Source of the DNA: Longimicrobiales bacterium
GTDB lineage: Bacteria > Gemmatimonadota > Gemmatimonadetes > Longimicrobiales > Gaopeijiaceae
Assembly (NCBI GenBank): GCA_965238005.1
Contig: OZ250165.1
Coordinates: 4,352,001-4,416,000 of the forward strand
DNA length: 64,000 nucleotides
Reading direction: 5' to 3'
Shown: one piece after another, positions 1 through 2,160 of the stretch
How the letters are laid out: every line of letters begins with the position of its first letter
How positions within the stretch are numbered: the stretch's first letter is position 1
Program-made: the position numbers and the translations under genes
The notes under the pieces: generated by a model
The model's database searches: none
What the model was told of the DNA's origin: nothing
The model's input: the letters and a program-made list of their open reading frames with translations, nothing else

Positions 1-439
1 CGAGGAGGTCCATTCGGACGCCGATGTGTCCGATGCTCACTCCGTAGTTGACGATCTGCCCTCCCTCAAGCGCGGCATACCACGCGCCCACGTCCGGCGT
101 GCCGACCTCCAGCTCGAGCGCCGAGGTGACTCCGTCCCTCACCATCAGAGCGTAGGCCTCCTCGAACTGCCCATGTTCGTGCAGATCGATGAAGCCCGGC
201 GCGACGACCAGCCCGCTCGCGTTGATGGTCTGTGCGCCATCGATCTCCCCGTCGACGATCGCGGCGATGCTTCCGCCCCGGATTCCGATGCTGCGGACGG
301 CGTCGAGACCCGATTCGGGATCCACGACCCGGCCATTCGCGATGACCAGGTCGAAGTCACCGCCACCCTCCTCTGCGGGAACGCAGCCCAGCAGCGTCCC
401 GGTGAGCAGGGCGATTCCGATCGCGAGTGTGCGTTTCAT
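1..439 (-). CDS. Amidohydrolase (N-acyl-D-amino-acid/D-glutamate deacylase-like) lipoprotein, 5' part; runs off the window
   Basis: Manual translation, not in ORF track: [19 protein letters not shown]...[26 protein letters not shown]...[15 protein letters not shown]...[13 protein letters not shown]; lipobox and HxH metal motif. The + strand ORF 26..457 is its antisense shadow. Confidence 0.85.
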
Positions 440-1652: not shown

Positions 1653-1916
1653 TTATGCCGCCTCTACAGAGGTCGTGTGCTCGCAGCAGTCCACGAACTG
1701 CTCGAGTCGTTCGGGGCTGAACCCGGTTATGAAGTCGTTGCCGTGGGCGATCACGGGAACTCCGACCCCACCGCTCAGAGAGCGCCACTCTCTCAGGGCT
1801 TCAACGTCCTGTGTGATGTCGAGCTCCTCGAACTCACAACCGTGTTCCTTGAGCCAATCCTTGGCATCTCTGCAATAGGGTCACGTAGGGGTGGTGTAAA
1901 CTCTGATCTTGGCCAT
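1653..1916 (-). CDS. Glutaredoxin-like selenoprotein (UPYC motif, TGA read as Sec)
   Basis: MAKIRVYTTPT-[TGA 1883-1881]-PYCRDAKDWLKEHGCEFEELDITQDVEALREWRSLSGGVGVPVIAHGNDFITGFSPERLEQFVDCCEHTTSVEAA*; AGGAGG RBS 5 nt upstream; Grx cis-Pro VP motif; frame stays open for 75 codons after the TGA. Confidence 0.85.
1851..1868 (-). promoter_or_regulatory. Candidate bacterial SECIS element
   Basis: mRNA GA-U-GCCAA-GGA-UUGGC-UC: stem with bulged U and G-first apical loop starting 21 nt after the UGA. Confidence 0.6.
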
Positions 1917-2160
1917 AGGGGCCTCCTGGAGGGTGTGGACGTCGGACTTCTGATACCAAGAGAAGATGCGGCCGAATACAGGTCGTCGCGAGCCTTGTCC
2001 CCCCACTCCCTCCCTCCTACTCTCCAACCCACCGACCCGCCCGGCCGCATGCGCGGCCGACTCCCGCGGATCGCATGATGCCGACTCGAGGGGGCTGTGA
2101 TGCGGCGGTAGCGAGCACCAGTGTACGACAGCTCGGGAACGCCCGAGCAGGAGGAGCGAC

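Follow-up and report, generated by a model that had tools for sequence, protein, structure and literature searches.

The minus strand of the window, the whole 64,000-nucleotide stretch of Longimicrobiales DNA analyzed here, encodes at positions 1916 to 1653 an 87-codon reading frame whose twelfth codon is a TGA placed inside a UPYC active-site motif. This gene is very likely a real, unannotated selenoprotein gene of a known kind. The preferred overall reading, held at a probability of roughly 0.6, is an 87-residue selenoprotein of glutaredoxin fold that functions as a thioredoxin reductase-driven disulfide reductase of the NrdH/Cp9 type. Within that reading, recoding of the UGA at codon 12 as selenocysteine (Sec), predicted from comparative sequence analysis, is close to certain.

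The sequence contains the complete succession of elements described in the first-pass annotation. A Shine-Dalgarno AGGAGG (1922..1927, minus strand, as for every feature of this gene) lies 5 nt ahead of the start ATG (1916-1914), 11 codons lead to the TGA (1883-1881), predicted to encode Sec as the first residue of the U-P-Y-C active site, and 72 codons follow PYC up to the TAA stop (1655-1653). An SD-like word is found within 20 nt upstream in 66 of the 79 homologous genes (among the matches listed). The read-through protein (87 aa, 1653..1916) has a glutaredoxin fold of NrdH/Cp9/YruB-like character. It contains a predicted resolving cysteine, Cys15 (1872..1874), for which 79/79 genes listed have a Cys codon; the subfamily-specific Cys27 after helix 1 (1836..1838); Pro54 (1755..1757) at the cis-proline position of the thioredoxin fold, with the cis geometry expected from the family; and Cys77-Cys78 (1683..1688) at the end of the last helix. 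Pro54 and Gly65-Phe66 correspond to the cis-Pro and GF motifs reported earlier. No second TGA occurs near the C-terminus in the read-through frame.

Conventional annotation passes over this frame. The plain ORF listing has no frame for the whole gene, as had been pointed out, and its sole overlapping entry is an upstream frame that stops at the TGA. The broader claim that gene callers miss such genes is borne out by relatives deposited as 61-75 aa fragments without the active site, which their sources call hypothetical protein, glutaredoxin family protein or NrdH-redoxin. Of 17 N-truncated public proteins tested, 11 align with the part of TGA loci that lies 3' of the TGA, and 0/17 match Cys loci.

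Homologs show either TGA or a cysteine codon at codon 12, as would be expected if the TGA occupies the position of the first Cys of the motif. The protein search returned 141 matches, and in the alignment of the best 120 of these with the query, column 12 is Cys in 104/121 proteins, query row counted, while 14/121 rows are N-truncated. GTDB and metagenomes were also scanned at the DNA level; the best 80 loci from each supplied 45 and 42 loci, respectively, to a close-subfamily set of 90, with 3 more from a separate search; distant loci (≤51% identity) were left out. Four of the 90 loci have no usable frame, and the remaining 86 rows (59 TGA, 27 TGC/TGT) reduce after duplicate removal to 79 distinct homologous genes, with TGA in 53 and TGC/TGT in 26 (among the matches listed). 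Any sampling bias runs against TGA, since one scan pattern demanded Cys at the site. Close GTDB loci are titled Gemmatimonadota lineages in 44/45 cases and uncultured bacterium in one (among the best 80 loci), and the closest GTDB locus among the matches listed, at 97% identity, is titled Longimicrobiales. The subfamily is patchy, occurring in 8/301 phylum genomes, 6 of them with TGA; phylum tallies of 301 genomes include one unpublished genome (G208), which shifts them by at most 1. Distant GTDB loci, when translated, have CxxC in 35/35 cases (among the best 80 loci).

In a quick tree, which omits two out-of-register rows and, with few columns, leaves many forks unresolved, the Cys genes fall into three groups among the TGA genes, and a second tree likewise needs three TGA/Cys changes. 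The simplest reading is that Sec is ancestral and reverted to Cys three times, the root of the tree being unsure. All three Cys-version genomes tested (3/3) retain selA.

None of the three refuting outcomes named in the first-pass annotation was borne out. Neither an error nor a nonsense mutation confined to this genome explains the TGA, because 53 TGA and 26 Cys codons occupy this position among 79 genes, TGA being the majority state. The idea that a nonsense mutation or sequencing error interrupts a cysteine glutaredoxin gene is already refuted by this conservation, and only a very slight probability attaches to it. It would be favored by a downstream hairpin that is thermodynamically ordinary and by a genome that holds at least one other, lesion-like in-frame TGA, aligned with Tyr rather than Cys. 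Against it, 53 distinct genes keep the TGA with an intact frame behind it, down to ~60% identity (among the matches listed), and the silent sites of the hairpin are fixed. Contigs of three independent public runs also span the TGA with no difference listed at that position, although two of the three have short flanks on one side.

A hairpin lies downstream of the UGA (1868-1851), and its GGA loop begins at the 21st base after the UGA, with 20 nt between. The conserved core of this predicted bacterial SECIS element (1853..1865) is a 5-bp stem, GCCAA/UUGGC, closing the GGA loop; counted from the U of UGA, the stem occupies +19..23/+27..31 and the loop +24 to +26. The hairpin, the G-first loop and the 21-nt position thus stand as originally drawn. 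The lower GA/UC pairs of that drawing do not: each is found in only 21/53 TGA genes, and they were set aside as not conserved. All five core pairs are formed in 51/53 TGA genes versus 0/26 Cys genes, and the outer four pairs in 53/53 versus 8/26; the loop in TGA genes reads GGA in 51 and GGC in 2 (all among the matches listed). Codon choice at silent sites follows the stem. The Asp20 codon is GAT in 49/49 TGA genes (among the matches listed), versus 93/333 at the remaining Asp positions of those genes and 8939/33406 genome-wide. The Ala18 codon is GCC in 41/41 TGA genes, versus 103/302 at other Ala codons there, and the Val18 variants use GTC in 12/12, keeping the stem by a G-U pair (both among the matches listed). 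Judged by these codon patterns, the hairpin is under selection only in the TGA genes.

The support for the hairpin lies in this conservation, because its stability alone is no better than that of shuffled sequences and similar structures have a 4.3% background. The hairpin does form in folding calculations, at -8.6 kcal/mol for 54 nt and -6.0 kcal/mol for 39 nt, the energy varying with the window folded, but comparison with shuffles gives z-scores from -0.24 to +1.02 over four windows, no better than chance. By the criteria set here, a similar hairpin follows 5214 of 120428 TGA triplets in the genome. Stability as stand-alone evidence was therefore dropped. Averaged over the TGA genes, the apical helix has a pairing probability of 0.80, versus 0.19 in Cys genes; at 0.39, the hairpin of this gene is itself weak, which counts against the preferred reading. 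The published bSECIS model requires a 3-9 nt loop, a 4-16 bp stem, a G[G/U] loop start, a distance of 16-37 nt from the UGA and an energy of -7.5 kcal/mol or lower (PMC13188914). The element agrees with the loop, stem, pattern and spacing terms of that model (GGA loop, A-U closing pair, 5-bp stem, 20 nt) and is borderline against its energy limit, with the 54-nt and 39-nt values falling on either side. The TGA/Cys contrast amounts to only three changes on the tree, and its nominal significance is overstated because independent switches are few; an independent-pairs test of hairpin against Sec found one pair on well-supported branches and has no power. More weight falls on silent-site fixation, apparent over 53 genes to ~60% identity.

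The genome (4.84 Mb, one contig, 95.85% complete) encodes the complete Sec machinery, in agreement with the earlier suggestion that the organism encodes Sec. SelA (462.8 bits), SelB (327.6 bits) and SelD (370.9 bits) score over curated cut-offs, a tRNA-Sec with TCA anticodon (selC) was found, and selD carries an in-frame TGA of its own. While selA is present in 12/12 carrier genomes tested, this is uninformative because selA occurs in 243/301 Gemmatimonadota genomes sampled, and co-occurrence was dropped as evidence. From the same count, Sec use looks widespread across Gemmatimonadota. One relative (G024:C579) has its TGA gene and selB on one contig, ~3.3 kb apart, a link that does not recur among clustered flanks.

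Three de novo screens of the genome yielded 17 further TGA candidates, and a family model spans the TGA in 11/17 of them. Ten of these 11 are plausible selenoproteins: SelD, formate dehydrogenase alpha, two OsmC-like proteins, two DUF3179 proteins, a DsbA-like protein, an AhpC/TSA-like protein with UPYC, a UGSC-family protein and a methyltransferase with a CU pair (positions 578551, 3491535, 4721260, 3999067, 3212601, 296274, 3188566, 3231754, 3501471 and 1793377 of the genome contig). The TGA of the eleventh, a molybdopterin oxidoreductase (1701956), aligns with Tyr in 5/5 homologs and is probably a lesion. Both this TGA and an in-frame TGA at 3138369, in a large carboxypeptidase-regulatory-like-domain protein, are more likely nonsense changes or assembly errors than Sec. 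The candidates have G-led loops at +23 to +42 from the UGA, which are not independent evidence because the candidates were chosen partly by hairpins. The list is incomplete: the screens are noisy, and the Markov-model screen missed this very glutaredoxin-like gene.

Structurally, the read-through protein is modeled by AlphaFold2 as a four-strand, three-helix thioredoxin fold (pLDDT 91.8). It scores 59.5 bits against Pfam PF00462 (Glutaredoxin; gathering cut-off 22.9) and is the sole PF00462 match in the genome; with its thioredoxin fold, C/UxxC motif and cis-Pro-loop proline (Pro54 in 121/121 aligned proteins, the best 120 of 141 matches plus the query), it has the features of a glutaredoxin-domain protein. 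The Grx/NrdH-like fold proposed earlier is thereby supported, with the refinement that the protein resembles the NrdH/Cp9/BC3987 redoxins more than it does the glutathione-dependent glutaredoxins. The best structural matches, BC3987, E. coli NrdH and cGrx1, are tied (Z 12.6-12.8, rmsd 1.3-1.8), and E. coli Grx3 scores lower (Z 10.4-10.7). The NrdH/Cp9/BC3987 markers, which PMC3720550 gives as [IV]-x-[ILV]-[YF]-[ST] at 4-8, Pro54, Gly65, Phe66 and Leu/Ile71, are all present with identical numbering (I4-R-V-Y-T8, P54, G65, F66, L71).

Assignment to an existing subfamily is less direct, as none of the 20 models listed in the NCBIfam profile scan reaches its cut-off. The best model, YruB (TIGR02196), gives 76.5 bits against 88.55, and the protein has no TrxR-Prx operon of the YruB/Cp9 kind. 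NrdH (TIGR02194) gives 49.9 bits against 85.75; the active site is UPYC, not C-[VMI]-Q-C, and there are no nrd neighbors. These scores under the YruB and NrdH cut-offs count against the preferred reading. The Grx3-type model (TIGR02181) gives 46.1 bits against 90, and neither gshB nor GshAB, which a glutathione-dependent Grx3-type protein would call for, was found. Comparison with selenoprotein models, proposed as a check on the first reading, had a mixed outcome: the Uxx-star model NF041212 matches residues 4-66 with 60.3 bits, under its 66-bit cut-off, with model positions 65-70 unmatched and no C-terminal TGA. The same model matches all 102 aligned members at E ≤ 1e-10, and the best member (E 3.8e-19) may pass the cut-off. 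No fused forms were found at E ≤ 1e-15 among 38 longer candidates, which is weak evidence.

UxxC selenoprotein glutaredoxins are established, and this gene, for which the comparative evidence is exceptionally clean, adds a member in an unmodeled Gemmatimonadota subfamily. Glutaredoxin (PF00462, UxxC) appears among the characterized bacterial selenoproteins in PMC13188914. The closest characterized relative is cGrx1 of Clostridium (Alkaliphilus) oremlandii (PDB 7C10/7C12), described in PMC7642778 as a native selenoprotein with a catalytic Sec in U-P-x-C, the motif shared with the present protein. It is the best PDB sequence match (E 1.2e-12) and aligns structurally with Z 12.6 and rmsd 1.3 over 75 residues at 33% identity. 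However, cGrx1 comes from a different phylum and has neither Cys27, nor the LREWR helix, nor the Cys77/78 tail, all three of which are present here. NrdH, Cp9 and BC3987 (TIGR02194, TIGR02196) share the fold (Z 12.7-12.8) and the conserved positions, but they lack the roughly ten extra C-terminal residues with cysteines found here; NrdH and Cp9 belong to nrdHIEF or trxR-prx operons, whereas this gene is in neither, and the prevalent Cp9 motif, C-P-[YW]-C, has here its first Cys replaced by Sec. Uxx-star proteins (NF041212, NF041114, NF041211) are likewise glutaredoxin-like selenoproteins and carry Sec three residues before the stop; unlike them, this protein has no second TGA near its C-terminus. 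Classical glutaredoxin (E. coli Grx3, TIGR02181) shares the CPYC-type motif and PF00462, but the present protein has GF(S/N/D)PER where Grx3 has its GGxD turn, which binds glutathione. No literature on this subfamily was found in the searches made, and 'Gemmat' is absent from the main text of the selenoprotein review and of the BSepDB paper; the subfamily could still be catalogued in BSepDB itself or in the papers' supplements.

From established chemistry, the preferred reading proposes that SelB recognizes the GG loop and brings Sec-tRNA to the UGA, that the Sec12 selenolate would attack a target disulfide, that Cys15 would resolve the mixed bond, and that NADPH and thioredoxin reductase would re-reduce the U12-C15 bond. 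The likeliest role would be general protein-disulfide reduction or the recycling of peroxidases or repair enzymes, because no conserved operon is found. The thioredoxin-reductase route is predicted as the probable one. A thioredoxin reductase gene (3978301-3979230 of the genome contig) is present over cut-off, and neither gshB nor GshAB was found in this one-contig, 95.85% complete genome; a strong glutathione-synthetase-domain match occurs in 1/12 carriers. With no glutathione synthetase found, thioredoxin reductase is more probable as the reductant, with bacillithiol as its rival. Cp9 is described as carrying electrons from thioredoxin reductase to a peroxiredoxin (PMC3720550). Counting against the preferred reading, trxR, peroxiredoxin and nrd genes are all missing from the immediate surroundings of the gene, and cGrx1, the closest characterized selenoprotein, is described with glutathione as its general reductant (PMC7642778). 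cGrx1 is also the proposed reductant of a selenoprotein MsrA; that pairing is not directly transferable because no neighbor marks a target here and the MsrA of this genome is a Cys enzyme with no stop in its gene, and an MsrA partner of the cGrx1 style was accordingly rejected.

Recycling of the same selenoprotein by bacillithiol and YpdA, with bacillithiolated proteins as targets, would make it a stand-in for glutaredoxin in a cell without glutathione. This alternative is unlikely, though it is the strongest of the competing readings. The lack of gshB and GshAB hits, bshC and ypdA over cut-offs in this genome, the UPYC motif of glutaredoxin type and the absence of any other PF00462 match would all suit it, as would the presence of bshC in 12/12 and of ypdA in 10/12 carriers. 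The bshC co-occurrence is, however, uninformative because bshC is near-universal (91/101 phylum genomes) and the subfamily is rare (8/301). Canonical BrxA/B bacilliredoxin is encoded in this genome and in 11/12 carriers, which disposes of the idea of a missing bacilliredoxin, and no bacillithiol neighbor is common to the carrier loci. BrxC/YtxJ was not found in this genome and is present in 2/12 carriers. In this genome ypdA (571827-572789) lies ~5.7 kb upstream of selD (571827-579441 for the two together), probably by chance. Thioredoxin reductase is favored because the protein carries the class markers and another redoxin already serves the bacillithiol route.

Beyond the active site, the subfamily is distinguished by additional cysteines. 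The C-terminal CC pair first noted, with metal binding or disulfide resolution as its suggested role, is present in this protein, and at least one Cys occurs at these positions in 174/174 sequences, but the pair itself in only 55/174; a vicinal CC site is unsupported as such, and the requirement is for one cysteine at 77 or 78. Among 174 distinct sequences, both cysteines occur in 55, only Cys78 in 94, only Cys77 in 25 and neither in 0, whereas independence would leave ~13/174 with neither, an expectation that is overstated because kin are not independent. The two positions show 15 and 11 changes on the tree. Cys27 is found in 171/174 sequences and is absent from 35 distant YruB-like proteins translated (among the best 80 loci). 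In sequence terms, the either-or pattern would most simply fit one partner needing one cysteine, the simplest candidate being Cys27. Three sequences without Cys27 keep CC, which argues against a strict requirement. Most likely, Cys27 and Cys77 or Cys78 would form a stabilizing link on the far side of the fold from the active site, a location that follows from the fold topology of the model.

The same residues could instead form a second centre for metal binding or electron relay, made up of Cys27, Cys77/78 and perhaps His58. The near-invariance of Cys27 and of one cysteine at 77/78 despite 15 and 11 changes, the presence of His58 in 152/174 sequences and the lack of these residues in distant YruB-like proteins are in keeping with such a centre. 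It is nevertheless improbable: the CC pair is a minority state, His25 (110/174), His80 (107/174) and His58 vary, CC persists in the three sequences without Cys27, and no metal-resistance neighbors recur. A composite of these proposals, a Gemmatimonadota-specific, selenium-based bacilliredoxin of glutaredoxin fold with a second cysteine centre for metal or relay and recycled by bacillithiol, is slightly less probable again. The stabilizing link remains the preferred role for these cysteines.

Genomic neighborhood analysis of 433 flanking ORFs from 79 loci reveals no neighbor common across the subfamily. The largest real flank cluster is a divergent gene of ~1000 aa at 19 loci, mostly of one TGA clade, labeled helicase-like from a reading of its Walker A motif. 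No promoter or terminator for the gene itself was found within 1500-2200, and the only promoter-like site, a sigma-70-like one (1564-1536), is downstream of the gene. Just downstream of the gene is an HTH protein (1530-1012), and the minus-strand region 563-1564 also contains two overlapping ORFs (672-1136 and 563-829) with no Pfam match, which by eye may be pieces of one gene. In a same-genus genome, a different pair with a NikA-like domain occupies the spot just downstream of the gene, so this spot looks like a variable slot, possibly, as a guess, one for toxin-antitoxin-like pairs. With regard to expression, positions 1654-1844 are represented in one RNA run by the gene of a relative (90-95% identity), and the TGA is spanned in a run whose RNA origin is a guess; in both cases contigs cannot show transcription.

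The gene corrects an annotation blind spot, since relatives stand in public databases as fragments without their active site. The coexistence of Sec and Cys versions in one phylum is a natural experiment suited to tests of what Sec adds, and the hairpin, which decays in the Cys versions, suits tests of the minimal needs of a SECIS element. The finding would matter more if bacillithiol proved to be the reductant, or if the distal cysteines were catalytic.
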